Assembly (NCBI GenBank): GCA_001824295.1
Contig: MHWY01000008.1
Span: 52,261-116,260, forward strand
Length of the DNA stretch: 64,000 nucleotides
Direction of reading: 5' to 3'
Source of the DNA: Candidatus Zambryskibacteria bacterium RIFOXYD1_FULL_40_13
GTDB lineage: Bacteria; Patescibacteriota; Minisyncoccia; Phycocordibacterales; DATDWN01
Shown here: positions 42,123 through 64,000 of the stretch, in pieces
Layout: every line of letters starts with the position of its first letter
Numbering within the stretch: the stretch's first letter is position 1
Program-made: the position numbers and the translations under genes
The notes under the pieces: generated by a model
The model's database searches: none
Seen by the model: only the letters and a program-made list of their open reading frames with translations
What the model was told of the DNA's origin: nothing

Positions 42123-42258
42123 ACTTCCAGAATCAAATAAACAAAAAGTCAGTTGGCTTTGACATCGGATAACTTTCGCTTCCACTTTGGTTGGTCCGGA
42201 TCGCACATATTACTTGCGAGGGACCCCAAAGCGGGAGCGAAAGTAACCCACATTTGAG

Positions 42259-42582: not shown

Positions 42583-42703
42583 TGCCGTGTAGACCAATCC
42601 CAAGTCTACAGAATTAGAAACTGGGACAACAATACTTCGGGGAAGTACCGAAGCGCCTACCAAGCGGTCACTGATCGTCCTCCAGAACGCCATCCTGGAT
42701 CCG

Positions 42704-43540: not shown

Positions 43541-43791
43541 TGTGGGGTGGTATGTATCCGTCCGAACCGAGAACCCCCCCGTACTCTGCAAGAGTAAAGG
43601 ACGGATGGTGAAGACTTACATTCATCATTGGGTAAAATGCCCCTCTAATGGGCAGTCATCCGTGGGGATTGTTGAGTGGAAACACCGCACCCTATTGACC
43701 CCAAACTGCACACCGCTCTTTTTGGAACGGCTCTACGGTTAAGGCTTCGCAAGCTACCATCGTGGGGCCTTTTTCGTATTAAAATTACACC

Positions 43792-45861: not shown

Positions 45862-46159
45862 TGGGCTACATTTTGAGAATGATTTGCCGCCCGTGCTTTT
45901 AAGACCTGACCCTAACCGCGGATCTTGTTGTGAGCTTATAATAAGCTAAAAATTAAAATATATTCTGGTTGTCAGTGGCAAATATGGCTCTACTAGACCA
46001 TATTTTAGTCTCCTTAGTTCAGTACTCCTAAAGTATATACCTGCAGGCTGTGGGGTCAATAGGGGTTACACACAGCAAGCAATAGTCCGTAAAGTTCATA
46101 AAGTTGAAAGTTTATAAAGAAAATTCGGGAATTAAAAAGAAAAATGCTAAAATCAAGCA

Positions 46160-48094: not shown

Positions 48095-48204
48095 CATACG
48101 AATATGCGAATAATGCAAATATACGAATGGATACGAATGAAAGGGCGCCTCTTTTGTATTATTCGTAGTCATTCGCATCATTCGTTAATTCGTATATTCG
48201 TATG
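48095..48204. repeat. Palindromic ACGAAT/ATTCGT-rich intergenic element, copy 2 (right arm overlaps the rsmA start codon)
   Basis: acatacgaatatgcgaataatgcaaatatacgaatggatacgaat ... attcgtagtcattcgcatcattcgttaattcgtatattcgtatg; homologous to 26911-27021. Confidence 0.8.
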
Positions 48205-48984
48205 ATCAAAAAAAAATCATTAGGTCAGCATTTCTTAAATTCTCCAAAAATAATTTCTGATATTGTTTCTGCTGGAAAGGTGGGCGCGAATGATGTTGTT
48301 GTTGAGATAGGCCCGGGCGAGGGAACATTAACCTCTGCGCTTCTTAAGACCGGTGCGCGTATTATGGCGGTTGAGAAAGATGATAGGCTCATTCCTTTCT
48401 TGCAAGAAAAATTTGAAAATGAGATTTCATCTGGGAAACTCATTCTCATACACACAGACATTCTCCTTTGTGACGTAGAAAAAATCATCCGTGGACCATA
48501 CAAACTTGTAGCCAACATACCATACTACATAACAGGGCAAATAATACGAATGTTTCTAGAAAGCAAAAACCAGCCAAAACTAATGACACTACTTGTTCAA
48601 AAAGAGGTGGCCGAGAGAATCGTCGCAGGGAATAAAAAGGAAAGTTTGCTATCACTATCAGTAAAAATTTATGGTGAGCCTAAACTAGTCAGAGCCGTTG
48701 GACGAGGAGCATTCAGTCCTCAACCAAATGTAGATTCTGCTGTATTAAATATTGAAAATATATCAAGAAAAAAATTGGAAGGGGTAGAAGATAAAAAATT
48801 TTTCGAAATGATTCACGCCGGGTTTGCCCACAAACGAAAACAACTTCTTCCAAATCTTGGCGACTTATATAAAAAAGAAGATTTAATCTCGGCTTTCGAA
48901 AAATGCGGGTTGGACCCAAAGTCCAGAGCGGAAGATGTTTCTCTTGAGACATGGATAAAATTTTGTAATACAATACTGAGATGA
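48202..48984 (+). CDS. rsmA: 16S rRNA (adenine1518/1519-N6)-dimethyltransferase RsmA/KsgA
   Basis: 260 aa; LGQHFL, VVEIGPGEGTLT (SAM-binding), NIPYYIT. Confidence 0.9.
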   Translation: MIKKKSLGQHFLNSPKIISDIVSAGKVGANDVVVEIGPGEGTLTSALLKTGARIMAVEKDDRLIPFLQEKFENEISSGKLILIHTDILLCDVEKIIRGPYKLVANIPYYITGQIIRMFLESKNQPKLMTLLVQKEVAERIVAGNKKESLLSLSVKIYGEPKLVRAVGRGAFSPQPNVDSAVLNIENISRKKLEGVEDKKFFEMIHAGFAHKRKQLLPNLGDLYKKEDLISAFEKCGLDPKSRAEDVSLETWIKFCNTILR

Positions 48985-50624
48985 TGAATAAAATATTAGA
49001 GTCAATCAAAAACCAACCGATTACTGTTAGTCAATGGGTTGTTGGATTTGTTGGAATATTGTCAGTACGTTTCATCTTGGAAGCTTTTTCTAGCCCAACC
49101 ACTTCGGGAATAATTCCGTCTGACCCATTTACACTAGTGCACTACCTGCTTTTCTTTCTGTCTGTTATCCTGGGTATTGCTTGTATTGTTGGTTTCTTTA
49201 CAAAAAAATATGCTGAGACAGTAAAACTTCTACTTTTTGCTCTACCCATAACGTGGATTGCACCAATTTTGGATATAATAATTAGTTCAGGAACTGGTTA
49301 TCGCATGTCATATGTTTTTAATAGCCACAAGGAGCTTCTCCTTGATTTTTTTAGGTTTTTTAGTCCACAAATCATGCAGTGGGCCACCTATGGCATGCGA
49401 GTGGAAATATTGATTATTCTCTGTGGAATAGGTTGGTACGTGTGGACACAGAGAAAGAAAATACTCCCCGTTGTCTTATCGGTTATTGCTACATATTTTT
49501 TGATTTTTTTAATCGGTTCGACACCAGGAATCCTATACACCGTGACCAACCCCAATGCAGAAGTCACAGAAACTTCTTATGGTACTTTTTACTATGTTGC
49601 CGAATTAGTAACAGAGTCAAATATTTTTCACAACACCCTGCATGAAACGGCCTTCTCTGTTCCACCAATTAGATTTTTTGAGCTTGGTTTTAATAAACTG
49701 ATGTCCCAGATATTATTTGTTCTTTCTATTTTATTTAGCGCAATCTTATTCTGGAATATAGATAAACAAAAATTCAAGGCGGTGTTAAAAAACTCACGGG
49801 GGGAACGAATACTTTTTTATCTGACTCTCTTGGTTTTAGGAATGTGTGGTGCGTATCTTCTTGGCAACAAGCTTGGTTCTTGGGTAGATATTCTTAGTAT
49901 TGTTTGTCTTATGTTTGCCTGGATTGGAATCTGGCTATATGCAGTACAAGTAAATGATATCGAAGATATAGATATAGACAAAATTTCAAATCAAGAAAGG
50001 CCCTTAGTACAACATACTATCACCGCAAGTGAAGCAAAGGAAATCGGGTATATATGGCTTATTGTAGCCCTGGCTGGCTCGTGGTCTGTTGGTTTCTATC
50101 CCTTCTATATGTGCCTTGTAGCAATTATAATTTCTTATGTTTATTCTGTGCCTCCATTACGGTTAAAGAGAGTGACAGCACTCTCCACATTTCTAATCAG
50201 CATAGCTTGTCTTGTAACAATACTTGCTGGATTCTTCTTTGTTTCAATAAATAAGGTTGTGGCAACTTTTCCAGTATTGTTTGTAATAAAAATATTAATC
50301 ATCTTTACACTTGGAGTAAGTATTAAAGATATGAAGGATGTGGAAGGAGATGGAGTAAACGGAATAAAAACTGTGCCAGTGATATTTGGTAAAAATGGCC
50401 CGTGGGTTGTTGGTGTTTTTTTTGGTCTTAGTGTTTTGCTTGTTCCAATATTCATATCATTCTATCTGTTGTATATCATTGCTATACCAACGGCCATTAT
50501 TGGATACAAACTAGTTACAAAAACACCATACAAAGAGAAATCTGTGTTTATTTTATATTTTTCTTATCTAATACTATCAGTAATATTATTTGCAATTACC
50601 CCTTGGGTTGTCAGTTTATTCTAA
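48981..50624 (+). CDS. Polytopic membrane protein with C-terminal UbiA-family prenyltransferase domain
   Basis: 547 aa; Asp-rich motifs NDIEDIDID and KDMKDVEGD in a TM context typical of UbiA; extra ~300-aa N-terminal membrane domain. Confidence 0.5.
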   Translation: MMNKILESIKNQPITVSQWVVGFVGILSVRFILEAFSSPTTSGIIPSDPFTLVHYLLFFLSVILGIACIVGFFTKKYAETVKLLLFALPITWIAPILDIIISSGTGYRMSYVFNSHKELLLDFFRFFSPQIMQWATYGMRVEILIILCGIGWYVWTQRKKILPVVLSVIATYFLIFLIGSTPGILYTVTNPNAEVTETSYGTFYYVAELVTESNIFHNTLHETAFSVPPIRFFELGFNKLMSQILFVLSILFSAILFWNIDKQKFKAVLKNSRGERILFYLTLLVLGMCGAYLLGNKLGSWVDILSIVCLMFAWIGIWLYAVQVNDIEDIDIDKISNQERPLVQHTITASEAKEIGYIWLIVALAGSWSVGFYPFYMCLVAIIISYVYSVPPLRLKRVTALSTFLISIACLVTILAGFFFVSINKVVATFPVLFVIKILIIFTLGVSIKDMKDVEGDGVNGIKTVPVIFGKNGPWVVGVFFGLSVLLVPIFISFYLLYIIAIPTAIIGYKLVTKTPYKEKSVFILYFSYLILSVILFAITPWVVSLF

Positions 50625-50650: not shown

Positions 50651-51466
50651 ATGCCAAATAACAAAATTCTATTTGTCTTGATTCTTTGTGTTGGAGTAGT
50701 GACTTCGGTTTTTTTGTTTTCAAGAAATAAAAGTGCTGGCACAAACACAGAGAACACAGCGAACATCACACCAAAGTCGTACAGAAACATTGATGAAAAC
50801 ACAAACAAAGACTGGAAAAATATATTAGTAAATGTTGATACAAGCGAAAGCGCTACAACTATTCTGACCAACGATGACGAAAATTCATTTAACGAAACAA
50901 CACTTACAGCACAAATGTCGCGCGATTTCCTTTCCCAATATTTGTTAGCAATAAAAAACGGGCCCCTAACAACAGAGGATTCAGATGCAATAGCTAGAAA
51001 CACACTTTCCATTGAGGGGTATACAAACATATCTGGAGCAAAATATTTAGCCACAAACCTACACATAACAACGAAATCAGACCAAGTTACACTTCAAAAA
51101 TACGAAGATACCGTAAATAAAATGCTAAAAATCCGTTCATTAGAGGTAAAAGAAGACCCAACCACCATTTTTCAAGACTCAATAAACAGCGCAAGTGAAG
51201 TACGGCTCGCAAAGCTTGACCCAATTATCCTTTCAAACAAAGGTTTTTTGACAGACTTGCTCAGTGTTGAGGTTCCAGAGAAAGCCGTAACGGTCCACTT
51301 AGCTCTTCTCAACGCTTCAAGCAACATATTGTCTGACCTAGAGGGAATGAGATTGGTTTTTGTTGACCCAGTTAGAAGCTTGACTGCTGTTGGACAATAC
51401 AACAACCATATCTCGGATTTGAAAACTGCCGTAGAAAACATTGCGGGGTTTTTTGCTCAAAATTAA
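50651..51466 (+). CDS. Hypothetical membrane-anchored/secreted protein
   Basis: 271 aa; N-terminal TM/signal; no motifs recognised. Confidence 0.35.
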   Translation: MPNNKILFVLILCVGVVTSVFLFSRNKSAGTNTENTANITPKSYRNIDENTNKDWKNILVNVDTSESATTILTNDDENSFNETTLTAQMSRDFLSQYLLAIKNGPLTTEDSDAIARNTLSIEGYTNISGAKYLATNLHITTKSDQVTLQKYEDTVNKMLKIRSLEVKEDPTTIFQDSINSASEVRLAKLDPIILSNKGFLTDLLSVEVPEKAVTVHLALLNASSNILSDLEGMRLVFVDPVRSLTAVGQYNNHISDLKTAVENIAGFFAQN

Positions 51467-51567: not shown

Positions 51568-54267
51568 ATGTCATATAAAAAAGTAATTGTTGGGATAATT
51601 ATCATCTCCTTTTCTGTTTTTTTTGTTCCACAGAAGAGTTACGCGCAGTATATTGACCCCGCACAGTTTGTAAAGGAATTTGCACTTGACACAATTGCAG
51701 TGGTTATTGGAAAAATAATGTTAAAAAAACTGACTTCTCAAACAGTCAACTGGATTAACTCTGGATTTCAAGGAAACCCCGCATATGTGACAGATCCAGG
51801 CCAATTCTTTCTTGATGTTGGAGACAATACTGCGGCCAAGTACCTGTCTGAAACCCAACTAAACAAGCTCTGTAGTCCATTCAAGGCAAATGTACGGCTG
51901 GCTCTGGTCAAAAACTATATTGAAGATACCAATAATTATTCCTGTACACTCGGCACTCTTGAACAAAACTACGAAGCATTCACTAACGATTTTACTCAAG
52001 GAGGATGGGATGGATGGTTTCAGATGACTCAGACCAGTGGAGGAAATCCATACAGTGCATATTTTGCAGCTGAAAGCACCTTGCTTGCAGGAATTAATGA
52101 CCAAAAGACAAAAAAAGAGACCGAGTTAAGTCAGGGTGATGGATTTTTGTCAGCACAAAAATGTAAAGCAGGAACAGCTTTCACCCAGGCAGATGTGGAC
52201 TATTGGGGGGAAATGGGTATATGGGTAGATATTGGGGAATGTTTTGAGGAAGATAAGGAAACAGTTACCCCAGGCAGTACAATAAACAAATCCTTAGGAG
52301 ATGCCCTTGGTTCCGGCTGGAAACAGCTTGAAGCTGCAGACGAACTAAACGAAGTTGTTACTGCACTTGTAACCCAACTGATTCAAAGGGTTGTTGGTGG
52401 TGTTGGTGATGGGTTAAGAGGAGCAAGCAAGTCTTCAGCAACCGGAGGAACTTCCTACACCGATCAACTAAGAGATGAGCCTCAGCCAGACCCTGTCAAT
52501 CCCGGAGAACTGCAACTCAGTGAAACCACCATGGTTTGTTTAGAATTCACAGAAGGTGCCTGTACAAAATGGGGGGTAAACCCAGGCCAAATATCCGGAC
52601 CGCCATGGCTTCCACCAATTGACGTTGAGACACCAACCCCAACCAAACCGGCAGAATGTCTCCAAAAAAACGGCAACTATGCAGGTGATCTAATGGGAGC
52701 AATGAACACTGTCTTGTCAGCAAACCCAACCCTGGCTGGCTCACCAAACACTACCGCAAACAGTTTTGCCTTCCTGGCTTTAGTTGCACAAAACCCACCC
52801 TCTGGATTTAATGTCACGGACCAGGTTTTGAACGGAAACGATAATACAAATAGAGGAGACTTGTTGGCTATATGGAAAAACGGTGATTCAAAAATGGAAA
52901 GATATGACGTGATTGCTTCATCTGGAGAAGGAGACAGAACAATCTCTTCTGCTGTATACACCGGCTTCACTGGATCAATTGCACTTAATTGTACCGCCTC
53001 TGGAGGCGGAAAGGGCTGTCACTGTGAATACGCACCAACAGAACCGTTACCACCAGAACCAACCAAAGAAAACCCATCAGTAACATCAATCAACCCAAAC
53101 CCTATTATGGTTTGGAATACACTAGAGATAACTGGTAAAAACCTAACAACAGTAGTTCAGTTTATTGATAGTGCGGGGACAAAAAACACAGAAGTGGGTC
53201 AAGGCGGTGGAACAAAAACAACAATCTTGGTGCCAAAATATTTGAAACCTGGTAATTATACGGTAAAAATCTACAAATCTGCTGATTCTATTTCCAATGG
53301 AGTTCCATTGGTTATAAAAGGAAAAACAGAACCAACAATTCCAACAATTCCAACAACGAGTAAGTGGACACCACCACAAACAAATGGTTTTGGTTGGTGG
53401 GCAAAGTTATCTCCAGATGGAAAATATGTAACATATGGGAATGGAGAAAGTTGGGTAACAAATCTCGAAACGAAACAGAGTTGGGACCTTAAGAAGGCCA
53501 TTGTTGGATTACCAGCAACTGCCGGTTGTTATGCTGGACAATGGATGTCAAACACAGTAATTTCGATTAAGTGTGATGATGACCCAACCAGCAAAGAAGA
53601 CAAATCGTACAGATATGAGGTTACGGTTGGTGAGTGGATTCCGAGAAAAACAAGTGATTCCTCAAACTTAGTTGCAAGTAACTGGATGGTAGTAGCAGAT
53701 GGACACTGGACTGGTTTTTTGGCGAGTTCTGGAAGAATTGTTCAAGATAATAAAGTTATAATTTCTGGTGTTGGTGGTGCAATCTCAGCAAGTAAAAATA
53801 AAATTGTCCACGCATGTGACAATACCAACAAAGAGATTTGTATAAGAAACAACGACGGAACTTTATATAAAAAATATTCTGTAAAAACTCCAAACCATGG
53901 AACAGCAACGCTTGACGAATATGTGGCCTATGGCGGATACGGATTGGTTCGTGGAATAACTCCACTTGGAACAGACATCAATTTAACTGTCGTTCCATGG
54001 AACAATGAGGGGGTTGGCCCAGGTGGACTGTTTTATGTTGGAAATGCCCTTTGGGTGGCCACTGTAAGTTGGGACAATGACACAGGAAATGGGTTTGCAC
54101 TACTAAGACCTTGGGGAGACATGAGGGCCCTAGCGGTTGTTGCTGACGCCGTTGATGTAAGTGTGGCCATAAGGGGTAATGATTTTGTTATCGCCTACTT
54201 CAGTGATATAGGAAAGTTAGAGGTTGTTACTGTGCCAACAAATTCCGAGAGAAAAACCTTGAATTAG
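51568..54267 (+). CDS. Large secreted protein (signal peptide; IPT/Ig-like and beta-propeller-like regions), first gene of T4SS-like cluster
   Basis: 899 aa; signal peptide; SVTSINPNPIMVWNTLEITGKNL (IPT-like); Trp/Gly-rich C-terminal repeats. Confidence 0.4.
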   Translation: MSYKKVIVGIIIISFSVFFVPQKSYAQYIDPAQFVKEFALDTIAVVIGKIMLKKLTSQTVNWINSGFQGNPAYVTDPGQFFLDVGDNTAAKYLSETQLNKLCSPFKANVRLALVKNYIEDTNNYSCTLGTLEQNYEAFTNDFTQGGWDGWFQMTQTSGGNPYSAYFAAESTLLAGINDQKTKKETELSQGDGFLSAQKCKAGTAFTQADVDYWGEMGIWVDIGECFEEDKETVTPGSTINKSLGDALGSGWKQLEAADELNEVVTALVTQLIQRVVGGVGDGLRGASKSSATGGTSYTDQLRDEPQPDPVNPGELQLSETTMVCLEFTEGACTKWGVNPGQISGPPWLPPIDVETPTPTKPAECLQKNGNYAGDLMGAMNTVLSANPTLAGSPNTTANSFAFLALVAQNPPSGFNVTDQVLNGNDNTNRGDLLAIWKNGDSKMERYDVIASSGEGDRTISSAVYTGFTGSIALNCTASGGGKGCHCEYAPTEPLPPEPTKENPSVTSINPNPIMVWNTLEITGKNLTTVVQFIDSAGTKNTEVGQGGGTKTTILVPKYLKPGNYTVKIYKSADSISNGVPLVIKGKTEPTIPTIPTTSKWTPPQTNGFGWWAKLSPDGKYVTYGNGESWVTNLETKQSWDLKKAIVGLPATAGCYAGQWMSNTVISIKCDDDPTSKEDKSYRYEVTVGEWIPRKTSDSSNLVASNWMVVADGHWTGFLASSGRIVQDNKVIISGVGGAISASKNKIVHACDNTNKEICIRNNDGTLYKKYSVKTPNHGTATLDEYVAYGGYGLVRGITPLGTDINLTVVPWNNEGVGPGGLFYVGNALWVATVSWDNDTGNGFALLRPWGDMRALAVVADAVDVSVAIRGNDFVIAYFSDIGKLEVVTVPTNSERKTLN

Positions 54268-54280
54268 TGCTTGAATCACA

Positions 54281-56410
54281 ATGCGTAAATTTTTTCCATA
54301 TATTTTAATAATAATTATTTTGTTTGGACTGTTTAGCCCGCTAAGTAATGTCTCCGCTGATGTAGCAAGTGTTGTAAACTATCTACTCCCTGCCCCAAAA
54401 GCGGGTGAGTGTTCAATTCTAAGTGGAGAAGGTATATGGAATTGTTTTGGGTGGGTTGGTGAAAGAATCGCCTACTATGCCATACTAGTACCCGCTTCGT
54501 GGCTAGTCTGGTTCTCTGGTATGCTTCTTGATTTTGTTATTAACTGGACTGTTGTGGGTATGAGGGAACATGTTGCCGAAATGACAGGAATAAATACTGC
54601 ATGGAAAGTTGTTCGCGACATCATGAACATTGCTTTTATATTTCTCTTAGTATACGAAGGTATAAAAACAATCCTAGGATTAAGCGAACTAAAAGAAATA
54701 AAGAAGTTTATAAGTATGGTTATCTTAGCTTCTCTGCTTGTAAACTTTAGTTTGTTTTTTACAAAGGTGATGATAGACGCATCCAACATTGTAACTGTTG
54801 GGATTTACAATGCGATTATAGATACCGATAAATTCTCAATCCACGGGCAGACAAATGAGATTGGCGGGTTATCTGTGCCATTTATGAATGCTGTCGGTGT
54901 TACGGGTTTCTACTCAGCACAAACCTTTGGTGAGGTGTCAGCAGACGCGGGTGGCCATAGTAACGCGATGATTTTCTATATTGGTGGGGCGGTTATTTTA
55001 GTAATACTCTCTTTTGTTTTCTTTGCAGTCGCAACCATGTTTGCTATTAGATATGTTACTTTACTGATTCTCCTTATGCTGTCCCCGGTTGCTTATATGG
55101 GAATGGCACTGCCTTTTGTTAAACCATATGCCACAAAATGGTGGAAGGCCCTGAATAGCCAACTACTTTTCGCTCCTATTTATATGATAATGACTTCGGT
55201 TGTTCTAACCCTTATGACAAGTGAGAACTTTCTTAAGAGTAGCGGTAGTTGGGATGGTTTGGTTAAGGGTGGCAGTACGGCACCTGGAGGACTCGGACTT
55301 ATATTTAACTTCTTTGTTGTCATTGCTCTAGCCATCGCTTCTTTGGTCATTTCAAAAAGTACTTCGGTAGATGGGTCAAATTACATCAAAGACGCAACGA
55401 CCAAGTTTTCTGCCTTTGCCGGTGGGGCTGTTATGAATAGTGCAGGAAGAGTAGGAAGGGGTAGTGTCGGTAGGGTTGGGGACATGGTCACAAACAGCGA
55501 AACCGCAAAAAACATGGCAACATCCCAAGGACATTGGTACTCTGGTTTTAATAGAACCGTGGGTAAGGTTGCACTAAAGACAGGAAACAAGGCAGCAACA
55601 AGTACATTTGATGCAAGAAATACCGGTGCTTTTGGAATGCTATCAAGTTCAACAGATGTAAAATTTGGAAAAGGGGCCGATGCTAAGAAGGTAAACTTCC
55701 AGAAAGACCTTGAAGCCAAAGCAACCAAACAGGCAGATTATGCAAAACTATTAAAACCTTCTGACACAGCAAAAGAAAGGGTAACTGCCGAGGAGGAGGA
55801 AAAAGTGAGAATAGCTGATGCACAACACGCTAACGCACAAACAGCACTTGATGCATTAAACAAGAAACGGAAAATGCTTGAGGAAAAAAGAAACAACGCA
55901 AGCGGTGTTATGGATCGCCTTGACATTCAAAAAGAAATTGATGCATTAAACAAAGAAATTCAAACAAAGAATGCTGGGGTAGCAAAGTTAAAAACCGCAA
56001 GTGACGCCGCAGTAAAGGCAAAAGAGGGCGCAGAAAAAGAGATGGCTGGGTTGTGGGAAAAAAGAGTTAATGCTTATGCATCAACCTTTAGTGATGAATC
56101 TGGTGTAGCAAAAACAGGTAGATACATAGCAAATATACTTAAGGCTGGCGGGGTAGCGGGGGCAGGACTATCACTTGGCTTTGGAGGTGTGGTAAGCGGA
56201 ATGGGTGGCGCTTCTGTAATAACAACTAAAGGGGATAAAAAGGTAATAGCAAGAAAAATAAAAGGGGTAATAAAAGACAAAAAAACAAAAATGACAAAAG
56301 AGGAGCGCAAGGAGTTAATAGACAAACTTGCAAATGCTGAGGATTCGGATGAGCCAGCACCCGTTGATACACCAGCACCAGAAACACCTCCGGCCCCACC
56401 AACAACATAA
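54281..56410 (+). CDS. Polytopic membrane protein, VirB6/TrbL-like, with C-terminal coiled-coil and Pro-rich tail
   Basis: 709 aa; signal peptide + >=6 TM; long Lys/Ala/Glu-rich coiled coil; PAPVDTPAPETPPAPPTT tail; position in the T4SS-like cluster. Confidence 0.35.
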   Translation: MRKFFPYILIIIILFGLFSPLSNVSADVASVVNYLLPAPKAGECSILSGEGIWNCFGWVGERIAYYAILVPASWLVWFSGMLLDFVINWTVVGMREHVAEMTGINTAWKVVRDIMNIAFIFLLVYEGIKTILGLSELKEIKKFISMVILASLLVNFSLFFTKVMIDASNIVTVGIYNAIIDTDKFSIHGQTNEIGGLSVPFMNAVGVTGFYSAQTFGEVSADAGGHSNAMIFYIGGAVILVILSFVFFAVATMFAIRYVTLLILLMLSPVAYMGMALPFVKPYATKWWKALNSQLLFAPIYMIMTSVVLTLMTSENFLKSSGSWDGLVKGGSTAPGGLGLIFNFFVVIALAIASLVISKSTSVDGSNYIKDATTKFSAFAGGAVMNSAGRVGRGSVGRVGDMVTNSETAKNMATSQGHWYSGFNRTVGKVALKTGNKAATSTFDARNTGAFGMLSSSTDVKFGKGADAKKVNFQKDLEAKATKQADYAKLLKPSDTAKERVTAEEEEKVRIADAQHANAQTALDALNKKRKMLEEKRNNASGVMDRLDIQKEIDALNKEIQTKNAGVAKLKTASDAAVKAKEGAEKEMAGLWEKRVNAYASTFSDESGVAKTGRYIANILKAGGVAGAGLSLGFGGVVSGMGGASVITTKGDKKVIARKIKGVIKDKKTKMTKEERKELIDKLANAEDSDEPAPVDTPAPETPPAPPTT

Positions 56411-56414
56411 AAAT

Positions 56415-57371
56415 ATGAACGAAGATATATTAAAAGACCAACCAGAATATGTAAAAAACTTACCCAAGCCCATCCAAGACTTTATATTTAATAGTGCCTG
56501 GAGTGAAAGGGTAGAAGAGATAGCAAAAAAATATACACTCAATGAAACCCAGACGGAGGACTTGGTAGATAATGTACTGCTTCTACTCATCGGTCTATTA
56601 GAACCAAAAGAGCTTCTCGGCACAATCATTGCTGAGCTGAATATTTCGCAACTCTTGGCTGAACAACTAGTAGATGATCTAGAAGTACGGGTCTTTGACT
56701 ATGCTCTAAAAAGCATGCAAAACAAAGAAAAAGGGCTTATTCTCCCAGCTGAAAACACCAAATCAGAGATGCCTCCTGTGCCAACCACACCCAAGAGCGT
56801 TCTCGATATTCAAAACGACCTACCAGAGATAAGGCCAGAAATTACTCCATTGGTTGAGCTAGGGGAGACTGCTCACACAAACCCCGTGCTAACCACACAA
56901 AAAGAGGCAACGCCACAAAGGGTCTATAAGTACGGACCGCAAGACCCCGTGAAAACTGAACAGGTGGCACCAATACATATTCCAGAGTCACCAAAGCTTT
57001 CTCCCGAGCAAATTCAAAAACCTTTTTCCGTACCGCGATATATTGGTGAAGATGGTGAGGTTAAACCAGAAACAGAAATGCTACAAAAGCCAGCACGAAT
57101 AAGTTACGGCGGAACTTCCACTACCAGCGAATTACCAGAAGCAGAATCATTTATGGACCTAAATACTGGCGGGGAAATGAAAAAGACCGCTTATATACCA
57201 AGTTACAACAAAACACAGCCCGAAGAACCAGCAAAACCGCAAGAGATAAAAGCAACAGAAACCAAACCAGTTGCCGAGGTTAAACCAGAAGAACCACCGA
57301 AAATACCAGAACCCATCACACCGCCAGTTAAAAGATATGACGTTGACCCATACAGAGAACCGTTGGAGTAG
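56415..57371 (+). CDS. Hypothetical Pro/Glu-rich protein (start moved to MNEDILKDQ)
   Basis: The longer ORF at 56328 overlaps the preceding gene by 80 nt; the ATG at 56415 follows the stop at 56410. Confidence 0.4.
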   Translation: MNEDILKDQPEYVKNLPKPIQDFIFNSAWSERVEEIAKKYTLNETQTEDLVDNVLLLLIGLLEPKELLGTIIAELNISQLLAEQLVDDLEVRVFDYALKSMQNKEKGLILPAENTKSEMPPVPTTPKSVLDIQNDLPEIRPEITPLVELGETAHTNPVLTTQKEATPQRVYKYGPQDPVKTEQVAPIHIPESPKLSPEQIQKPFSVPRYIGEDGEVKPETEMLQKPARISYGGTSTTSELPEAESFMDLNTGGEMKKTAYIPSYNKTQPEEPAKPQEIKATETKPVAEVKPEEPPKIPEPITPPVKRYDVDPYREPLE

Positions 57372-57477
57372 TTCATAAAGTCTATAAAGTCAAAAGTTTT
57401 TAAAGTAAAACACAATAAATGCTATACTTCTTAAGACTTTATGAACTTTATAACTTTACAAACTTTATAACTCTGCC

Positions 57478-57912
57478 ATGCGCTATCAAGTACCCCAATT
57501 TATTGAAATAGAAGACAAAATAATAGGTCCTCTAACCTTAAAGCAATTCGTATACTTAGTTGGTGGAGCTGGCATGTCTTTTATCATGTACAACTTCTTG
57601 CCGTTAATTGTTGCACTGTTGCTAATTGCCATTATTATTCCAATTTCTCTTGCCCTAGCTTTCTATAAAATAAACAATAAACCTTTTATTGATTTTATGG
57701 AATCTGCCTTCGCGTTCTATACAAAACAAAATCTATACATCTGGAAAAAAGAAGAGAAGATTGTTGAGGCAAAAAAAGCAGAGGCAACCACAGAAGCCCA
57801 AGTTTATGTACCAAGACTGTCTGATAGCAAGCTAAAAGAGTTGTCGTGGTCACTTGATATCAACGAAAATCTCAATCCACTTACTGGAGAAGATGGAAAG
57901 AGTACGAGATAA
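57478..57912 (+). CDS. PrgI-family / VirB3-like small membrane protein
   Basis: 144 aa; VPQFIEIEDKIIGPLTLKQFVYLVGGAG followed by two TM helices; lies upstream of VirB4 as in Gram-positive T4SS. Confidence 0.5.
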   Translation: MRYQVPQFIEIEDKIIGPLTLKQFVYLVGGAGMSFIMYNFLPLIVALLLIAIIIPISLALAFYKINNKPFIDFMESAFAFYTKQNLYIWKKEEKIVEAKKAEATTEAQVYVPRLSDSKLKELSWSLDINENLNPLTGEDGKSTR

Positions 57913-57949
57913 ATAAATTTTGGTTTAGGACTATGTTATAATCATCAAT

Positions 57950-58588
57950 ATGGCTGTAAATTCCAAAGCAACACAAGAGTTTGTCCCAATAAAAGAAGTG
58001 CGTGATGGCATTGTCGTCTTGAAAGATGGTTCAATGCGAGGGATTGTTCTGTCTTCCTCTGTAAACTTTTCCTTGAAATCAGAAGATGAGAGAAATGCCA
58101 TAATAATGCAATTCCAAGATTTTTTAAACTCTTTGGACTTTGTTGTCCAAATCTGTGTGGAGTCAAGAAGGCTAGATATTAGGCCATATATTGCACTTTT
58201 GGAAGAAAGGTATAAAGAGCAAGTAAACGACTTAATGAAGATACAAACCCGTGAATATATTGAGTTTATTAAAAAATTTACAGAATCCACAAATATAATG
58301 ACAAAAAGTTTCTTTATTGTTGTATCTTATGACCCAGCAATGATTAATGTTAAGGGCGGAGTAGCTGGAGGATTTTTTAAGAAAAAAACCGCGGCAGAAG
58401 AGCTGGAAAATAAACGGGCAAGTTTTGAAGAAAACAGAACACAGCTTGAACAAAGGGTCTCTGTTGTTGAGCAAGGTCTGTCACGATGTGGAATAAGAGT
58501 GGTAAGACTTGGAACAGAAGAGGTGGTAGAGTTATTTTATAAGATATTTAATCCAGGAGACACAGAGAAACCAATTAAGATTTCATAG
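57950..58588 (+). CDS. VirB4 N-terminal-domain-like protein (possible detached N-terminal part of the VirB4/PrgJ ATPase)
   Basis: 212 aa; VPIKEVRDGIVVLKDGSMRGIVLSSSVNFSLKSEDERNAIIMQFQDFLNSLDFVVQICVESRRLD resembles the N-terminal region of long Gram-positive VirB4 homologues. Confidence 0.4.
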   Translation: MAVNSKATQEFVPIKEVRDGIVVLKDGSMRGIVLSSSVNFSLKSEDERNAIIMQFQDFLNSLDFVVQICVESRRLDIRPYIALLEERYKEQVNDLMKIQTREYIEFIKKFTESTNIMTKSFFIVVSYDPAMINVKGGVAGGFFKKKTAAEELENKRASFEENRTQLEQRVSVVEQGLSRCGIRVVRLGTEEVVELFYKIFNPGDTEKPIKIS

Positions 58589-58631
58589 TTTGTAAAGTTA
58601 AAAGTTTTTAAAGTTTATAAAGTAAAATACA

Positions 58632-58976
58632 ATGAAAATTGAAAGATTTGAAGATATCATAGCTTGGCAAAAAGGAAAAATGTTGGCCGTTGATATATAT
58701 GAGTGTTTCAAACCCTGTAAAGACTTTAGTTTTCGAGATCAGATTCAAAGAGCGGTTATAAGTATTTCAAACAACATAGCTGAAGGTTTTGAAAGACAAA
58801 GTAATAAGGAACTATCAAAATTTTTATTTATTGCGAAAGGTTCTTGTGCAGAGGTTAGGTCAATGCTGTATATTGCGTTAGAATTAAAATACATAACAAA
58901 AAAGGATTTTAAGGGCTTTTACTTAACAAGTCAGGAAATTTCTAAAATTCTTTCTGGTCTTATTAAAACTTTATGA
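58632..58976 (+). CDS. Four-helix-bundle protein (23S rRNA intervening-sequence protein / DGR Avd family)
   Basis: 114 aa; RAVISISNNIAEGFERQSNKELSKFLFIAKGSCAEVRSMLYIALELKYI is the family hallmark. Confidence 0.8.
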   Translation: MKIERFEDIIAWQKGKMLAVDIYECFKPCKDFSFRDQIQRAVISISNNIAEGFERQSNKELSKFLFIAKGSCAEVRSMLYIALELKYITKKDFKGFYLTSQEISKILSGLIKTL

Positions 58977-59009
58977 ACCTTATAACTTTACAAACTTTAT
59001 AACTCTGCT

Positions 59010-60827
59010 ATGGGAATATTTGATTTTTTCAAAACAAAAAAAGAGGAACAGCGCGTCTCAACAATCCTTCCGCAGGAGATATATGACTCCAACTCCTTGG
59101 AATTGAAGGATATTATTGCTCCAAGTGCCCTAAAGATAACACCGAAAGAAATAAACTTGGGGGAAAAGGTTCTAAGAAGTTTCTTTGTTATCTCTTACCC
59201 GAGATATCTGAGCGAAAACTGGTTTGCCCCAATAATTAATCTAGACAAGGTGTTTGATGTTTCTATCTTTATTTCACCCATAGAAACAGCCCAGGTTCTC
59301 AAGACATTTCAAAAGAAAGTTGCGGAGGTACAAAGCCAGATAAACACCCGCGAAGCCAAGGGTTTGGTCAGAAATCCAATGCTTGATACCGCCTACCAAG
59401 ACCTAGAGAATCTCCGAGACCAACTGCAACAAGCTCAAGAAAAGCTTTTTGATGTTGGACTATATATCACAATATATGCCGAATCAAGTGATGCTTTAGA
59501 CAAAATCGAGTCAGAAATTAAGTCAATACTTGAATCAAAAATGGTTTATGTTAAACCAGCATTATTTCAGCAGGAGCAAGGATTCAAAACAACCATACCT
59601 CTCGGCACAGATACTTTGGAAGTTAAAAGCAAACTAAACTCATCTCCACTATCATCTCTCTTTCCTTTCGTCTCCTTTGACCTGACCTCTGACAAGGGAA
59701 TTCTATATGGAATAAACAGGCACAACTCTTCTCTTATTTTATTTGATAGATTCTCTTTGGAAAACTACAACTCTATAACTTTTGCAAAATCTGGTTCTGG
59801 AAAATCCTTCATGACAAAGCTAGAAATACTTCGTACTCTTATGTTTGATGCAGATGTTTTAGTTATAGACCCAGAGAATGAATACGAATACTTGGCCGAG
59901 GCTGTTGGTGGAAGATATTTTAATATTTCTCTAAACTCAGAACACCACATCAATCCATTTGAGCTGTCAGCTCCAGGAGAAGGGGAGTCATTTGCTAGTG
60001 TTTTGCGCTCAAACATAATCAACCTAGTTGGTTTGTTCCGTATTATGATGAACGGACTAACCCCAGAGGAAGACGCTATTATTGACCGCGCAATAACAGA
60101 GACATACGCACTGAAAGATATAACCGCCGACTCAAACTTTGAAAACGCAGAACCACCACTTATGTCTGACTTTGAACTTGTCCTCTCTGGTATGGAAGGC
60201 GGAGACTCACTAGCTCAACGCCTAACAAAATACACCAAGGGAACATGGGCTGGTTTTATTAATAGGCCAAGTAACGTAGATATAAACCAAAAATTCATCG
60301 TATTTTGTATACGTGATATGGAGGACGAGCTCAAACCGATAGCCATGTATATTATCATGCACTATATATGGAACATGATACGAAAGAAACTGAAAAAGAG
60401 ACTGCTTGTTATTGATGAGGCGTGGTTTATGATGAAATCAGATGATACCGCATCTTTCCTCTTGTCCCTAGCAAAGAGAGGAAGAAAATACTATCTCGGC
60501 CTTGCAACTATTACCCAAGATGTGGATGACTTCCTGAAATCTCCATATGGCCTACCCATTATCACCAACTCCTCTATTCAAATACTGCTAAAACAATCTG
60601 CAAGTACGGTAGATAAACTCCAAACAACATTCAACCTAACTGACGAAGAAAAGTACTTACTACTAGAGTCCGATGTGGGTGAGGGAATATTCTTTGCTGG
60701 TTTAAAACATGTTGCGATAAAAGTTATAGCATCCTACACCGAGGAACAAATCATCACCTCCGACCCATCACAGGTTTTGGCAATCAAGGCGGCAAAAAGA
60801 GACCTTGAAAACAGTGCTCAGCAATAA
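59010..60827 (+). CDS. VirB4/TrbE/PrgJ-family type IV secretion ATPase
   Basis: 605 aa; Walker A AKSGSGKSFMTK; Walker B LLVIDEAWFMM; CagE/TrbE/VirB N-terminal region (FFVISYPRYLSENWFAPIINLD). Confidence 0.8.
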   Translation: MGIFDFFKTKKEEQRVSTILPQEIYDSNSLELKDIIAPSALKITPKEINLGEKVLRSFFVISYPRYLSENWFAPIINLDKVFDVSIFISPIETAQVLKTFQKKVAEVQSQINTREAKGLVRNPMLDTAYQDLENLRDQLQQAQEKLFDVGLYITIYAESSDALDKIESEIKSILESKMVYVKPALFQQEQGFKTTIPLGTDTLEVKSKLNSSPLSSLFPFVSFDLTSDKGILYGINRHNSSLILFDRFSLENYNSITFAKSGSGKSFMTKLEILRTLMFDADVLVIDPENEYEYLAEAVGGRYFNISLNSEHHINPFELSAPGEGESFASVLRSNIINLVGLFRIMMNGLTPEEDAIIDRAITETYALKDITADSNFENAEPPLMSDFELVLSGMEGGDSLAQRLTKYTKGTWAGFINRPSNVDINQKFIVFCIRDMEDELKPIAMYIIMHYIWNMIRKKLKKRLLVIDEAWFMMKSDDTASFLLSLAKRGRKYYLGLATITQDVDDFLKSPYGLPIITNSSIQILLKQSASTVDKLQTTFNLTDEEKYLLLESDVGEGIFFAGLKHVAIKVIASYTEEQIITSDPSQVLAIKAAKRDLENSAQQ

Positions 60828-60848
60828 GATTCGTGCCAAAGTAATGTT

Positions 60849-61547
60849 ATGAAAGAAACACCTCAAACAAAAGGATTGCAGAGCATCCGAAATGATCTTG
60901 GTGACGTTCCTGGTGTCAAAAACTTTAATGATGTTCGGCGTGGAATAAAGGAATCAAGGGAAACAATAAGGCAGGCATCTGGTACAATAAAAAAGGAAGC
61001 TACCAAACAGATTTTAGACGGAGTTAATAGTGAAGGAACAAGAATTAGAAACGAATTTGAAACGTCTAGTGGAATACCTTTGACCGAGATTCAAAACAGA
61101 TTCAGTAAGGTTGGCAAGATGATGCAGGACTCAAAAGCAAGATTTGAAAAGAGAAACCGGGTGACAAAAACGACTATAGTATTAATGGTTACTGTGGCCC
61201 TAAGCTACGACACAGCTCAGTTTTTTTTAAACTGGCTTCCGTTTCTGGGCACAATATTAGCATCACTTGTTGGTATATATGCCTGGCTAACATTCTATGT
61301 GTGGACATCTATTAAGGGATGGGGGATGTCTGACTCAATTAACAAATTCATTGTTTCTAAGGTTCTTCCTTTTATAGGCTGTATTGGGGTTTTAAATGTC
61401 GGGCCAGAAATAACCGCGGGGGTAGTATTCACCATACTTATTGTTAAGTCGGAGGATTTCATTTATAACAAAACAAAAGGTAGGTTAGATGAAGCGGTAA
61501 TAATTGAGGGATCAAAAACTCTCAAGTATTTAAAAAAGTTGGTCTAG
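60849..61547 (+). CDS. Hypothetical membrane protein of T4SS-like cluster
   Basis: 232 aa; charged N-terminal half, 3-4 TM helices in the C-terminal half. Confidence 0.35.
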   Translation: MKETPQTKGLQSIRNDLGDVPGVKNFNDVRRGIKESRETIRQASGTIKKEATKQILDGVNSEGTRIRNEFETSSGIPLTEIQNRFSKVGKMMQDSKARFEKRNRVTKTTIVLMVTVALSYDTAQFFLNWLPFLGTILASLVGIYAWLTFYVWTSIKGWGMSDSINKFIVSKVLPFIGCIGVLNVGPEITAGVVFTILIVKSEDFIYNKTKGRLDEAVIIEGSKTLKYLKKLV

Positions 61548-61550
61548 GTT

Positions 61551-62618
61551 TTGGTTATAAACATTTTTGTGCTTGTGTATAAATGTATATTTAGAGCTTG
61601 TTCGTGTGTTACAATAAAACCAATGAGATATTCTGTCTATATTTTGTTTTTCTGTTTTTTGGGGTTTTTTGCTGTAGCAGATGCACAACTTAGTGCACTA
61701 CCCCAAACAGAAATAATCGCAACAATAACTCCAGAAAATCCAAAAGCAAATGAACTAGTATATGTTGCCCTTACCAGTTACGGAACAAACATAAACACGG
61801 CTAAAATAACTTGGGCGACAGATGGGAAAGTCCAGAAGTCTGGGATAGGTGAAAAGTCATTCACTTTCAAGGCTGGAGCACTCAACACAAGTACCATGCT
61901 GGAAATCACAATTGAAACCCAAGAGGGTGAAACTATAGAAAAAACCCTTAATATAAAGCCTGTTTTGGTAGATTTGATTTGGGAAAGTGATGGTGTAACG
62001 CCCCCTTTCTATAGAGGCAAGTCACTTTTCAGTCATCAAAACAAGCTAACCTTTATTGCCTTACCACACATAGCACCATCTGGAGGCGCGGAAATAAGTG
62101 CAAAAAACCTTGTATACAAATGGAAGAAAAACGGCTCTGTTGTTGACAGCGCATCTGGCTTTGGAAAAAACACCTATACTTTTGTTTCCTCTCTAATTTC
62201 AAGACCTGTTAAGGTTGAGGTAGAAGTGACAACAACAGACAGTTCGGGGTTTGGTTATGCTTCTTCGGATATGGCTCCAATAGAACCATTAGTTATTTTA
62301 TACAAAAAAGATCCAATATATGGTCTTGAGCTACAAAAAATCCTACAGAACACACTTACTCTCACCGATTCAAAAGAGATAATGGTAGTTGGTGTGCCTT
62401 TGTTTTTTAACAAAACAAATTTTGATAGAAACGAGCTAACTTACAAATGGTCAATAAATGGCATTACCATAGAGAATGAGTCATATCAGTCTACCCAAGT
62501 CTTCAGACAGAAGGAGGGTGTAGCAGGAACATCAAGGATTGGTCTTTCAATTGAAAACCCCAGTAAAATATTGCAGTACTCAACAACTGCCTTCAATTTG
62601 ATGTTTAATAACAATTAA
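61551..62618 (+). CDS. Hypothetical secreted protein (Ig-like repeats); probable start at internal Met ~61624
   Basis: Signal peptide MRYSVYILFFCFLGFFAVADA after an internal Met; repeated beta-rich segments. Confidence 0.35.
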   Translation: MVINIFVLVYKCIFRACSCVTIKPMRYSVYILFFCFLGFFAVADAQLSALPQTEIIATITPENPKANELVYVALTSYGTNINTAKITWATDGKVQKSGIGEKSFTFKAGALNTSTMLEITIETQEGETIEKTLNIKPVLVDLIWESDGVTPPFYRGKSLFSHQNKLTFIALPHIAPSGGAEISAKNLVYKWKKNGSVVDSASGFGKNTYTFVSSLISRPVKVEVEVTTTDSSGFGYASSDMAPIEPLVILYKKDPIYGLELQKILQNTLTLTDSKEIMVVGVPLFFNKTNFDRNELTYKWSINGITIENESYQSTQVFRQKEGVAGTSRIGLSIENPSKILQYSTTAFNLMFNNN

Positions 62619-62622
62619 TTAT

Positions 62623-63513
62623 ATGAAGAAGCTACTACTTTCAATTACCTACTTAACAATGCTTTCGTTTTTTATTTTTCCTGTGTTTTCTACTGTCTAT
62701 GCCCAAACACAGACTGAGGTAAAAGAGTATGCAGTGCTTGCTCCACTACCAGGTATAACTGACGAAGGTTGTGTTGGAGATGCCTGCAAAACAACCCTTG
62801 AAAGATACCTCCCAAACATGTTTAACTTAATGGTTGGAATAGCAGTCACCCTGGCTTTTATTATGATTGCCTGGGGAGGGTTTACATACGCAACCTCTGA
62901 TGCACTAATGGAAAAGCAGGATGGTAAGGGTCATATAGAAAGCGGAATATATGGTCTGCTTATCGTAATTGGCGCTTGGCTAATATTGTATACAATTAAT
63001 CCACAAATTCTTAACTTTGATTTAATTATAGCTAGACCAGATATTAAGGCCGGGGTTCCAACAGTGACTGCCGGAGTGCCAATGAAAGCGGAGGAAATTG
63101 CAGAAAGCAAAAAAATCCAGTCGGAACTGGCGGGGAAAGGGGTTTATGCATACAAAGGACCATGTGAACAGGGCCAAACAACCCAATGTGTAAATCTAAA
63201 TGGCCTACCACAAAACGCCATTTCTGGTTTACTTGGAACAAAGAAGGCTTGTGGTGATTGCAGTATTGTTATAACCGGTGGAACAGAGGGTGGACACGCC
63301 ACCCATGGTGCTGGGGCACCTGTAGTTGATTTAAGACCTGGTGGTGGTTTAAATGCTTACTTGAAAGTAAATAACCCCGTTGATGGAACAAAGATATTTA
63401 CTTCTCCAAACGGCGCAATTAAAGGCCCGCGTGCAACATATGTATATGAAACCGCCGGAGGAAACAGTCAAGGAACATCGACTGGTGCTCATTGGCATGT
63501 AATATATCAATAA
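62623..63513 (+). CDS. Membrane protein with VirB2/TrbC-like two-helix region and C-terminal H...D / HxH metal-site-like motifs (possible cell-wall hydrolase)
   Basis: 296 aa; signal peptide; two TM helices (MVGIAVTLAFIMIAWGGF; GLLIVIGAWLILYTI); C-terminal GGHATHGAGAPVVDLR ... GAHWHV. Confidence 0.3.
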   Translation: MKKLLLSITYLTMLSFFIFPVFSTVYAQTQTEVKEYAVLAPLPGITDEGCVGDACKTTLERYLPNMFNLMVGIAVTLAFIMIAWGGFTYATSDALMEKQDGKGHIESGIYGLLIVIGAWLILYTINPQILNFDLIIARPDIKAGVPTVTAGVPMKAEEIAESKKIQSELAGKGVYAYKGPCEQGQTTQCVNLNGLPQNAISGLLGTKKACGDCSIVITGGTEGGHATHGAGAPVVDLRPGGGLNAYLKVNNPVDGTKIFTSPNGAIKGPRATYVYETAGGNSQGTSTGAHWHVIYQ

Positions 63514-63516
63514 AAT

Positions 63517-64000
63517 GTCAAAAAAACTTTTTATAATCATACTTTCTATTGTTTTGGGATTATTCCTTACTAGTCTGGTTGGCTACTACTTTATTCTCCA
63601 AAGTAGTAACGCCACGGAACCAGGTGGAATAAGTAGCACGTTTAGAAATTTCTTTCCTTTTGGAAACAACACGAGCACAACAACAGAAATCGTGGAACCT
63701 ATTACAACAGAGCCAAACCAGTCAGGGCAACCACAGAACTACACTCAAAAATTACGAAAACTATCATCAGAACCAGTTGCAGGAGCTGGACTATTGGATG
63801 TTAAAGCAGGAACACTTGTCAGACACATAGAAAAAGCCACTGGTCATATATATGAAACGGAGCTTTTCTCACCAAACCAAAACCGTATTTCAAACACGAC
63901 CATACCACTCACTTATGATGCAATATGGGGCAACAAAAACAATGCTTTGGTTGCTAGATATTTGACAGAAGACAATAAAACAATAGAAACTTATGGGTTG
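63517..64000 (+). CDS. Hypothetical membrane-anchored protein (partial, runs off window end)
   Basis: ATG at 63517 (MSKKLFIIILSIVLGLFLTSLVGYYF...); open to the end of the window. Confidence 0.35.

Follow-up and report, generated by a model that had tools for sequence, protein, structure and literature searches.

The 64,000-nt stretch analyzed here (the window) carries a gene cluster at positions 51568-64000 that runs past the window end. The cluster is a chromosomal, non-conjugative type IV secretion system (T4SS) of the Patescibacteria, kept beside the replication origin of a Zambryskibacteria-like Paceibacterium. It is very probably a monoderm-type machine, related to the mating-pair-formation class FATA (MPF-FATA), that is no longer tied to conjugation and serves obligate host association; we infer that it functions in host-contact macromolecule traffic. 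The class is already known, having been described in 2023 to 2025, and the locus adds no new class. What carries the assignment is a well-matched T4SS core, a gene order that recurs across species, and a VirB4 ATPase more conserved than the replication initiator DnaA.

Every substantial open reading frame (ORF) of 51568-64000 lies on the plus strand. Together they form one co-directional operon of 12 to 13 genes, with intergenic spacers of -62 to 106 nt, that continues beyond the window to ~64741. A longer piece (L001) of the source contig, JGI 3300025121 Ga0208375_1000046, supplied the genes past the window end (9.5 kb downstream). A preliminary description made from the letters of the window had listed the ORFs of this region, and all of them are present at the positions it gave and on the plus strand. 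Its gene order likewise stands; it missed a four-helix-bundle cassette, the 408-aa last gene past 64000, the position adjoining the origin (oriC), and the published class. The features of the locus are as follows.

50651-51466, + strand: upstream bitopic protein, 271 aa; a possible accessory whose membership is unproven.
51568-54267, + strand: gene A, secreted or surface protein, 899 aa, with a signal-like N-terminus and a conserved N-domain.
54281-56410, + strand: gene B, extended VirB6-like polytopic protein, 709 aa, so named from hydrophobic segments and orthologue PF04610 matches.
56349-57371 (L001 3727-4749), + strand: gene C, 320-340 aa, from the gene call; no family match.
57372-57477, no strand: "empty" hairpin in the C/prgI spacer, read from the sequence.
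57478-57912, + strand: PrgI/VirB3-like protein, 144 aa (PF12666).
57950-58588, + strand: VirB4 N-terminal ORF, TrsD/TraD-like, 212 aa (NCBIfam).
58587-59002, + strand: four-helix-bundle cassette with an ORF of 114 aa at 58632-58976 (PF05635, TIGR02436).
59010-60827, + strand: VirB4 ATPase body, 605 aa (CD1110-family VirB4).
60849-61547, + strand: gene H, membrane protein, 232 aa, from hydrophobic segments.
61623-62618, + strand: gene I, secreted protein, 331 aa, with a signal-like N-terminus and repeats.
62623-63513, + strand: gene J, pilin hairpin plus LAS/M15-like domain (PF18895, conserved residues).
63515-~64741 (L001 10893-12119), + strand: gene K, membrane-anchored protein, 408 aa, the last gene of the operon.

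The setting of the operon is the canonical oriC neighborhood. Upstream lie uvrD/pcrA (46160-48088), ksgA (48202-48984), a membrane protein with a UbiA fusion, and the 271-aa bitopic protein. Downstream of gene K come convergent yidC (-) and rnpA (-), followed by dnaA, dnaN, and genes for a class A penicillin-binding protein, tyrS, and obg; yidC, rnpA, dnaA, and dnaN are all at most 5 kb downstream, and the cluster ends ~2.5 kb from dnaA. The GC content of the cluster (0.36-0.43) is similar to that of the remaining window.

Relatives were collected by scanning the VirB4 ATPase body against one genome per GTDB species, which gave 442 confirmed relatives. The best 80 of these (77-90% identical) were compared, and every window protein was searched against their loci by tblastn. 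These 80 are titled as metagenome-assembled genomes of Patescibacteria, Parcubacteria, or Paceibacteria type (Zambryski-, Taylor-, Wolfebacteria, and others), with a few named just "bacterium." In essentially all 80 loci, the order is uvrD-ksgA-(membrane protein)-271 aa-A-B-(C)-prgI-virB4N-virB4C-(H)-I-J-K, then yidC and rnpA, then dnaA and dnaN. Because this order recurs in 80 other species-level genomes, chance is excluded, and VirB4 is not the isolated orphan that the preliminary description had named as a test of its proposal but part of a 12-13-gene operon syntenic in 80 Paceibacteria genomes.

Conservation is uneven along this order. The median identities are 80% for the VirB4 ATPase body (VirB4C), 68% for the VirB4 N-terminal ORF (VirB4N), 63% for DnaA, 54% for PrgI (found in 73 loci), 54% for DnaN, and 47% for YidC, and they fall to 30-35% for A, B, I, J, and K. 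VirB4C (59010-60827) is more conserved than DnaA (L001 13688-15025) in 52/53 loci and more conserved than DnaN in 53/53, which is unusual for a secretion ATPase. Judged by these identities, purifying selection on the system exceeds that on DnaA across the 80 Paceibacteria species. Taken together, the constant synteny and the conservation of VirB4 indicate a vertically inherited core operon and not a mobile element.

The same VirB4 has conjugative proteins as its best family matches, namely, the CD1110 family of integrative and conjugative elements (ICEs) of the CTn2 type and the Mbov_0397 ICE ATPase. PrgI, TcpE, and TrsD are likewise conjugation-plasmid families, and a tyrosine recombinase gene occurs at 30208-31149. 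These features would suit a mating-pair-formation module of an ICE or integrated plasmid with its relaxase and coupling protein outside the window. The synteny and conservation data reject such an element, which we regard as highly improbable: the cluster sits at the identical place, flanked by ksgA and yidC-rnpA-dnaA, in 80 species, there is no GC shift, and VirB4 exceeds DnaA in conservation. The recombinase is 21 kb off, stands amid housekeeping genes, and looks XerC/D-like. No relaxase, type IV coupling protein (T4CP), or adjoining integrase was found among the Pfam-annotated genes of 8.7-64 kb of the window and the 9.5 kb downstream; the first 9.4 kb of the window holds TIM (triose-phosphate isomerase) and type IV pilus genes. 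The preliminary description had seen neither a relaxase nor VirD4 in the window and had pointed downstream as the place to look, and the annotated genes agree with it on the window and supply neither in the downstream stretch. Relaxases are also reported for only 103 Patescibacteria genomes (PMC12102498). "Conjugation-like," as the description had put it, holds for the ancestry of the cluster only, and the evidence speaks against a mobile element.

The vertically inherited machine has a core of PrgI, a two-piece VirB4, and a putative VirB6-like protein, an assembly that is well grounded by homology. Profile scans used Pfam and NCBIfam, with curated cutoffs as given for each family, and proteins without a match of their own were judged through syntenic orthologues as family representatives. 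The PrgI protein matches PF12666 at E 8.2e-11 (42.7 bits, cutoff of 27) and TcpE at E 2.6e-6, and has two neighboring hydrophobic segments. The VirB4 body scores 380.1 bits against the NCBIfam CD1110-family VirB4 model (cutoff of 325; model positions 183-733 of 752) and 2.9e-30 against P-loop_TraG. Its translation contains GSGKS, and a Walker B motif, LLVIDE, is found at residue 465.

The VirB4 N-terminal ORF is a distinct protein. It matches NCBIfam VirB4_plasma (8.8e-12, model positions 101-234), TrsD/TraD (1.7e-8, positions 13-200 of 201), and TIGR00929 VirB4 (model positions 4-178), and it appears in the JGI Pfam annotation as PF26593, TraC-like. In 77/77 loci, the N-terminal and ATPase ORFs are separate, usually with a gap of 1-10 nt; thus, the split is ancestral and was not caused by an inserted gene. 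A VirB4 broken by insertion of the four-helix-bundle gene was rejected on the same grounds, as nearly all of the 77 relatives lack the insert.

Gene B has ~7-8 hydrophobic segments within residues 4-357, followed by a low-complexity coiled-coil C-terminal tail for which a PDB profile search returned coiled-coil-type matches only. This layout corresponds to an "extended VirB6," and a VirB6 assignment is supported at the family level through orthologues, 10/43 of which match TrbL/VirB6 (PF04610; best E 1.9e-7). In one orthologue (L050), the match spans residues 121-294, the conserved transmembrane (TM) region, with 19.3 bits against a cutoff of 25.9. Thus, the PrgI, VirB4, and pilin assignments of the preliminary description are backed by matches above curated cutoffs, and its VirB6-like protein gains family-level support. 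Its VirB4 is present but split, with the separate TrsD-like ORF at 57950-58588.

Outside this core, the gene J protein consists of a signal peptide, a VirB2-like pilin helical hairpin (residues 58-125), and a C-terminal domain (~156-296). The hairpin matches T4SS_pilin (PF18895) over residues 58-124 at 37.1 bits (cutoff of 26.6); among full-length homologues, PF18895 is found in 109/109, and TrbC/VirB2 in 13/109 as well. Seven residues of the C-terminal half (C181, C189, E222, H225, D236, E276, and H290) are invariant in the 109 homologues, with conservation of 90% or more at W291 and H292. In a 39-sequence alignment of the domain, the residues of the metal-binding-type motif (H225, D236, H290, W291, and H292) are invariant.

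We assign this domain to a LAS/M15-like zinc-peptidase fold, with the near-invariance of H...D...HxH and fusion to SLT in support. The fusion is seen in two proteins of 340-380 aa (P0197 and P0203), in which the J-type LAS-like domain stands behind an SLT lytic transglycosylase domain; in layout, these two-hydrolase proteins resemble the VirB1-type enzymes of Gram-positive T4SSs. The LAS-type relatives named for the domain are the S. albus DD-peptidase, VanXYg, the T5 L-Ala-D-Glu peptidase (4.5), LysB4, LdcB, Ply500, and DacB. Matches to Pfam Peptidase_M15_4 are weak (2/109 homologues, E 0.0055; 2/32 orthologues, E 0.0018), and a profile search against PDB sequences gave no match. Compared with LAS/MEROPS M15 enzymes (VanX, VanY, MepA, phage L-Ala-D-Glu endolysins, and the Hedgehog N-domain), the domain is very divergent. 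Its His and Asp stand one to a few residues farther apart than in the canonical H-x6-D, and, unlike these references, the domain has a conserved Cys pair (C181/C189) and is anchored by a T4SS pilin hairpin. Of the pilin-like hairpin with an HxH motif proposed by the preliminary description, the hairpin stands, and the HxH region is corrected to this peptidase fold.

The LAS module is present in 13/62 positional orthologues of gene J. The others have a second variant with the canonical H-x2-G-x3-D motif, or Ig-like or coiled-coil regions. Thus, the hairpin is constant and the outer domain is exchangeable. One reading of this pattern is that the single VirB2-like protein of Paceibacteria is a display scaffold, with a hairpin that would polymerize or anchor at the channel and carry swappable outer modules. 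Here, the module would be a divergent LAS peptidoglycan peptidase, so that the secretion tube would itself bear the enzyme that breaches the wall, possibly that of the host, and supplies the VirB1 function; secondarily, hairpin-bracketed four-helix-bundle cassettes that colonize the prgI/virB4 spacers could subject the transcript of the operon to RNase III-type processing. We put this reading forward as speculation that is more apt to fail than to hold. The VirB1 function is missing from most pilin-bearing Patescibacteria loci in a 2025 survey (PMC12102498). A candidate wall-cutting domain physically joined to a pilin is directly testable through expression of ~145 residues.

The locus matches the class described in that survey (Quinonero-Coronel et al. 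2025, Microb Genom; PMC12102498), as expected from the Gram-positive-style minimal T4SS of Patescibacteria proposed for it at the outset. The survey defines a monophyletic Patescibacteria VirB4 clade related to MPF-FATA, with TrsD homologues beside virB4, PrgI, VirB6, VirB2-like pilins of the PF18895 type, and relaxases nearly absent; in Paceibacteria, the T4SS lies near dnaA, dnaN, rnpA, ksgA, and rpmH. Shared with this clade are the TrsD-like ORF by VirB4, PrgI/VirB3, the putative VirB6-like protein, the PF18895 pilin, the chromosomal position beside dnaA/dnaN/rnpA/ksgA, and the finding of no relaxase near the locus. The locus differs in having a single pilin-hairpin gene, in contrast to the arrays of 2-11 pilins in Saccharimonadia and Microgenomatia (PMC12102498). 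It departs from the published description in the C-terminal globular (LAS-fold) module on the pilin and in the cassette at the virB4N/virB4C junction. Neither a four-helix-bundle cassette nor peptidase features were found in term searches of the text of PMC12102498, where the sole "fusion" is VirB3-VirB4, and the four-helix bundle is absent from the supplements searched too.

The likeness to MPF-FATA systems (Trs of pGO1, Tra of pIP501, Prg of pCF10, and CTn2) lies in the 380-bit CD1110 VirB4 match, PrgI, a TrsD-type N-terminal piece that is separate, just like those of pGO1 and pIP501, and a monoderm architecture without VirB7, VirB9, and VirB10. Unlike them, the locus has no relaxase, T4CP, origin of transfer (oriT), or PrgB-type surface adhesin, and no recognizable VirB8-like protein (PrgL/TraM). 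It has a VirB2-like pilin, whereas Gram-positive systems are without one. Among monoderm T4SSs, that of the Patescibacteria alone is regarded as capable of making VirB2-type pili. The wall hydrolase is a LAS-fold domain on the pilin here and an SLT-plus-CHAP protein in MPF-FATA. Finally, the locus holds a fixed chromosomal position and is inherited vertically, in contrast to the MPF-FATA plasmids and ICEs.

Besides a cytoplasmic-membrane core, the operon encodes a single VirB2-like protein with the pilin hairpin and four or five proteins that are secreted or anchored. In the mechanism that we propose, VirB4 hexamers would be docked on the VirB6-like protein by way of PrgI and the TrsD-like piece and would drive the building of a conduit across the envelope and possibly of a VirB2-type pilus. 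Protein J, with its pilin hairpin, would display its swappable outer module, here a LAS-type peptidoglycan peptidase that may cut peptide cross-links of the cell's own or the host wall in a VirB1-like role. Contact would be mediated by the variable surface proteins A, I, and K. The cargo would be macromolecules that come from the host or are bound for it (nucleic acids, nutrients, or effectors) and not plasmid DNA. A conserved cytoplasmic core (PrgI and two VirB4 pieces) set against swapped extracellular parts points to host-specific contact, and selection stronger than that on DnaA marks the system as core physiology, not a mobile accessory.

The literature places such systems in host association. 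In Southlakia epibionticum (Wang et al. 2023, Cell), transposon sequencing found the T4SS to be essential for epibiotic growth, independently of ComEC, as the work is represented in PMC12857230 and PMC11665869. A Patescibacteria T4SS is thus essential in one genetically tractable relative (PMC11665869), in which its role is called "completely unknown" and effector delivery or nucleotide acquisition is speculated. A 2026 preprint links VirB4 to macromolecule transfer and describes tubular structures, which may be T4SS pili, on an ectoparasite in culture that takes up RNA from its host. The preliminary description had left the function ambiguous, and this is borne out. Two more specific roles bear weighing.

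First, the system could be a ComB-like DNA-uptake competence system that imports environmental or host DNA for nucleotides. A T4SS without a relaxase or a T4CP in the annotated neighborhood would fit this role, for which H. pylori ComB is a precedent; nucleotide supply has been speculated for the Saccharibacteria T4SS (PMC11665869), and the RNA-acquiring ectoparasite of the 2026 preprint bears tubular structures that may be T4SS pili. We nevertheless consider it unlikely. In the genetically tractable relative, transformation needs type IV pili and ComEC, and the T4SS is essential while ComEC is dispensable (PMC12857230). The window also has type IV pilus genes of its own at 2480-9375, and no DNA-processing genes are linked to the operon.

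Second, the system could export protein effectors or toxins into the host, the pilin-anchored peptidase being a host-wall weapon and not a remodeler of the cell's own wall. The outer parts are variable (the A C-terminus and the J module), as expected of host-facing proteins, the J module being of LAS type in the 13/62 orthologues and otherwise an H-x6-D variant, Ig-like, or coiled-coil. Delivery is among the speculations in PMC11665869, and a separate LysM-M23 peptidase (44827-45861) could serve the own wall. However, the operon has neither a candidate effector nor a coupling protein linked to it, and the variability of the J module could equally reflect relaxed constraint. This role is also unlikely, if slightly less so than DNA uptake.

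Several points weigh against host-contact traffic by an MPF-FATA-type machine, or against its parts. For this organism, neither a substrate nor an effector nor a pilus has been observed. The gene B protein of the window itself has no significant Pfam or NCBIfam match, and the PF04610 matches of its orthologues are mostly below the Pfam gathering score. A VirB8-like protein was not recognized, as profiles of I, K, and the 271-aa protein matched no VirB8, TraM, PrgL, or TcpC in the PDB. A T4CP may lie elsewhere on the 209.7-kb contig or in the genome, and VirD4 homologues are far from virB4 in many Patescibacteria (PMC12102498). Because the LAS module occurs in only 13/62 orthologues, it is not an indispensable VirB1 substitute for the whole class. 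Even so, an MPF-FATA-related machine in the service of host association remains our preferred reading, and little of it will greatly surprise a specialist in T4SSs or the candidate phyla radiation.

The outer and accessory proteins are less readily placed in families. Genes A, B, C, H, and I of the window have no significant Pfam or NCBIfam match of their own. Sequence and profile searches of the PDB with A, B, I, K, the J domain, and the 271-aa protein gave weak coiled-coil, Ig, and TolB hints only and no VirB8, VirB5, or VirB6 structure. The 271-aa protein is syntenic 5' of gene A in 29 loci (median identity of 25%), has a single N-terminal TM-like segment (residues 6-24), and has no Pfam or PDB relative; bacterial TSP3 repeats occur in 11/29 orthologues. 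In gene A, conservation across 40 orthologues is confined to the first ~290 residues (N-domain ~35-290), where four Cys are nearly invariant (at least 90%). The C-terminus is variable, and orthologues bear F5/8-type-C, Ig-like, or PKD domains there. About 20/120 gene A homologues show DUF4141 at residues ~5-70, a domain whose genes sit among the tra genes of Bacteroides conjugative transposons, beside traJ and near traG (PMC10434189).

Gene C encodes a small helical N-domain and a Pro/Glu/Lys-rich tail and was detected by tblastn in 13 loci only. The protein of gene H is soluble in its N-terminal half and has 3-4 hydrophobic segments toward the C-terminus (125-199). The gene is fast-diverging, with ~10 genuine positional tblastn matches, yet most loci have a gene-sized gap at this position. 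Gene I, present in 75 loci, comprises approximately three ~105-aa repeats with an invariant Trp at 64, 167, and 276; the repeats are probably Ig-like, the Hoc protein, itself Ig-like, being a weak profile match (E 0.002). Gene K, present in 61 loci with the convergent yidC always next, has one N-terminal TM segment and a weak TolB profile match (E 0.006) and is possibly a TolB-like beta-propeller.

We read the four-helix-bundle gene, which separates the VirB4 pieces, as a passenger and not a T4SS component, and its RNA processing is putative. Ca. Zambryskibacteria RIFOXYD1_FULL_40_13 encodes an identical four-helix-bundle protein. The ORF matches PF05635 (5.9e-33; 113.7 bits, cutoff of 33.8) and TIGR02436 (5.9e-32; 110 bits, cutoff of 24), the family named "23S rRNA intervening-sequence protein." Inverted-repeat arms of 34 nt (58587-58620 and 58963-58996; 76% complementary, with an 18-nt core of 89%) abut the start and stop of the ORF, and both the minimum-free-energy and centroid folds pair the flanks. 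The cassette thereby resembles the 23S rRNA intervening sequences (IVSs) with S23p ORFs, as in both a PF05635 ORF occupies the loop of a long stem whose strands are inverted repeats on either side of it; Avd of diversity-generating retroelements (DGRs) is a PF05635 protein as well. Unlike a 23S rRNA IVS, the cassette occupies a spacer between two protein-coding ORFs of an operon, and the window is free of rRNA. The Pfam annotation shows neither a DGR nor a reverse transcriptase nearby.

The closest relatives (L002-L012) lack the cassette, which was therefore gained recently. Among the 80 relatives, there are 12 further copies (L018, L027, L028, L032, L039, L041, L050, L055, L067, L072, L073, and L081) and a remnant in L021. 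All 13 copies within ~10 kb of virB4 in the 81 genomes occupy three adjacent spacers (C/prgI, prgI/virB4N, and virB4N/virB4C). These copies are all flanked by complementary repeats, and two protein lineages each occur in different spacers. The cassette is always co-oriented within operon spacers, and the flanking repeats are of short-unit sequence. Close homologues of the protein (67-82% identical) are very numerous in Patescibacteria and occur in spacers of unrelated operons (L086-L091), such as Wzy/epimerase, before RF-1, and before Pth; one contig bears two identical copies. The occurrence in unrelated operons weakens the notion of a dedicated T4SS partner. With the constant co-orientation, it leads us to read the cassette as mobile and IVS-like, tolerating or preferring operon spacers.

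The C/prgI spacer holds a hairpin (57372-57477) with cassette-like arms of nearly the same sequence and no ORF. The 19-mer ACAAACTTTATAACTCTGC is found exactly at 57458 and 58990, each time ending directly before an ATG (prgI and virB4C); thus, the 3' arm supplies the sequence just 5' of both start codons. The 130 nt upstream of prgI have a folding energy of -26.8 kcal/mol (z = -4.7). ORF-less hairpins also occur at the C/prgI spacer in relatives L004 and L008, and most relatives are without one. The hairpin-arm unit AAAGTTTWTAAAGT is a dispersed repeat, with 13 matches (at most one mismatch) against 0.42 expected, at 17934, 30475, 32118-32140, 46091-46120, 57377-57466, and 58601-58998. Several copies lie shortly 5' of gene starts, e.g., those of clpP (17959) and uvrD (46160).

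Elsewhere in the window, the region at 41600-43700 is GC-rich (0.48-0.58 versus 0.39) and ORF-poor and has very strong predicted RNA structure on both strands. It lies between a TrmB-like gene and the LysM-M23 gene. At 41600-42010, z is -8 on the plus strand and -10 on the minus strand, the latter bearing a terminator-like hairpin at its 41610 end; over 42000-43650, z ranges from -3 to -10 on the plus strand. Two paralogous units of ~300 nt (42660-43000 and 43315-43620) are 76% identical. The region gave no Rfam match even at E <= 0.1 and no tRNA or tmRNA. Its only relatives in a metagenome scan were two contigs identical to the window (100%); a scan of viral contigs gave none, and it is absent from the 80 loci. 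We consider it a candidate for one or more structured RNAs of a new type.

A type IV pilus set lies on the minus strand at 2480-9375. It comprises a PilB-like ATPase (7624-9375; T2SSE plus MshEN), a PilC-like platform protein (6406-7620; T2SSF), two proteins that each have an N-terminal methylation motif (one at 3942-4556, the other, which also has CarboxypepD_reg, at 4571-6367), and a 486-aa protein without a family (2480-3940). A wall hydrolase of LysM-LysM-Peptidase_M23 architecture (44827-45861, minus strand) lies 5.7 kb upstream of the T4SS operon and could be the cell's own wall-remodeling enzyme or an alternative VirB1-type helper. The 547-aa membrane protein at 48981-50624 combines a large N-terminal polytopic region with a UbiA prenyltransferase domain; the gene overlaps at its 5' end with the 3' end of ksgA, and it is conserved in the closest relatives only (6 loci).

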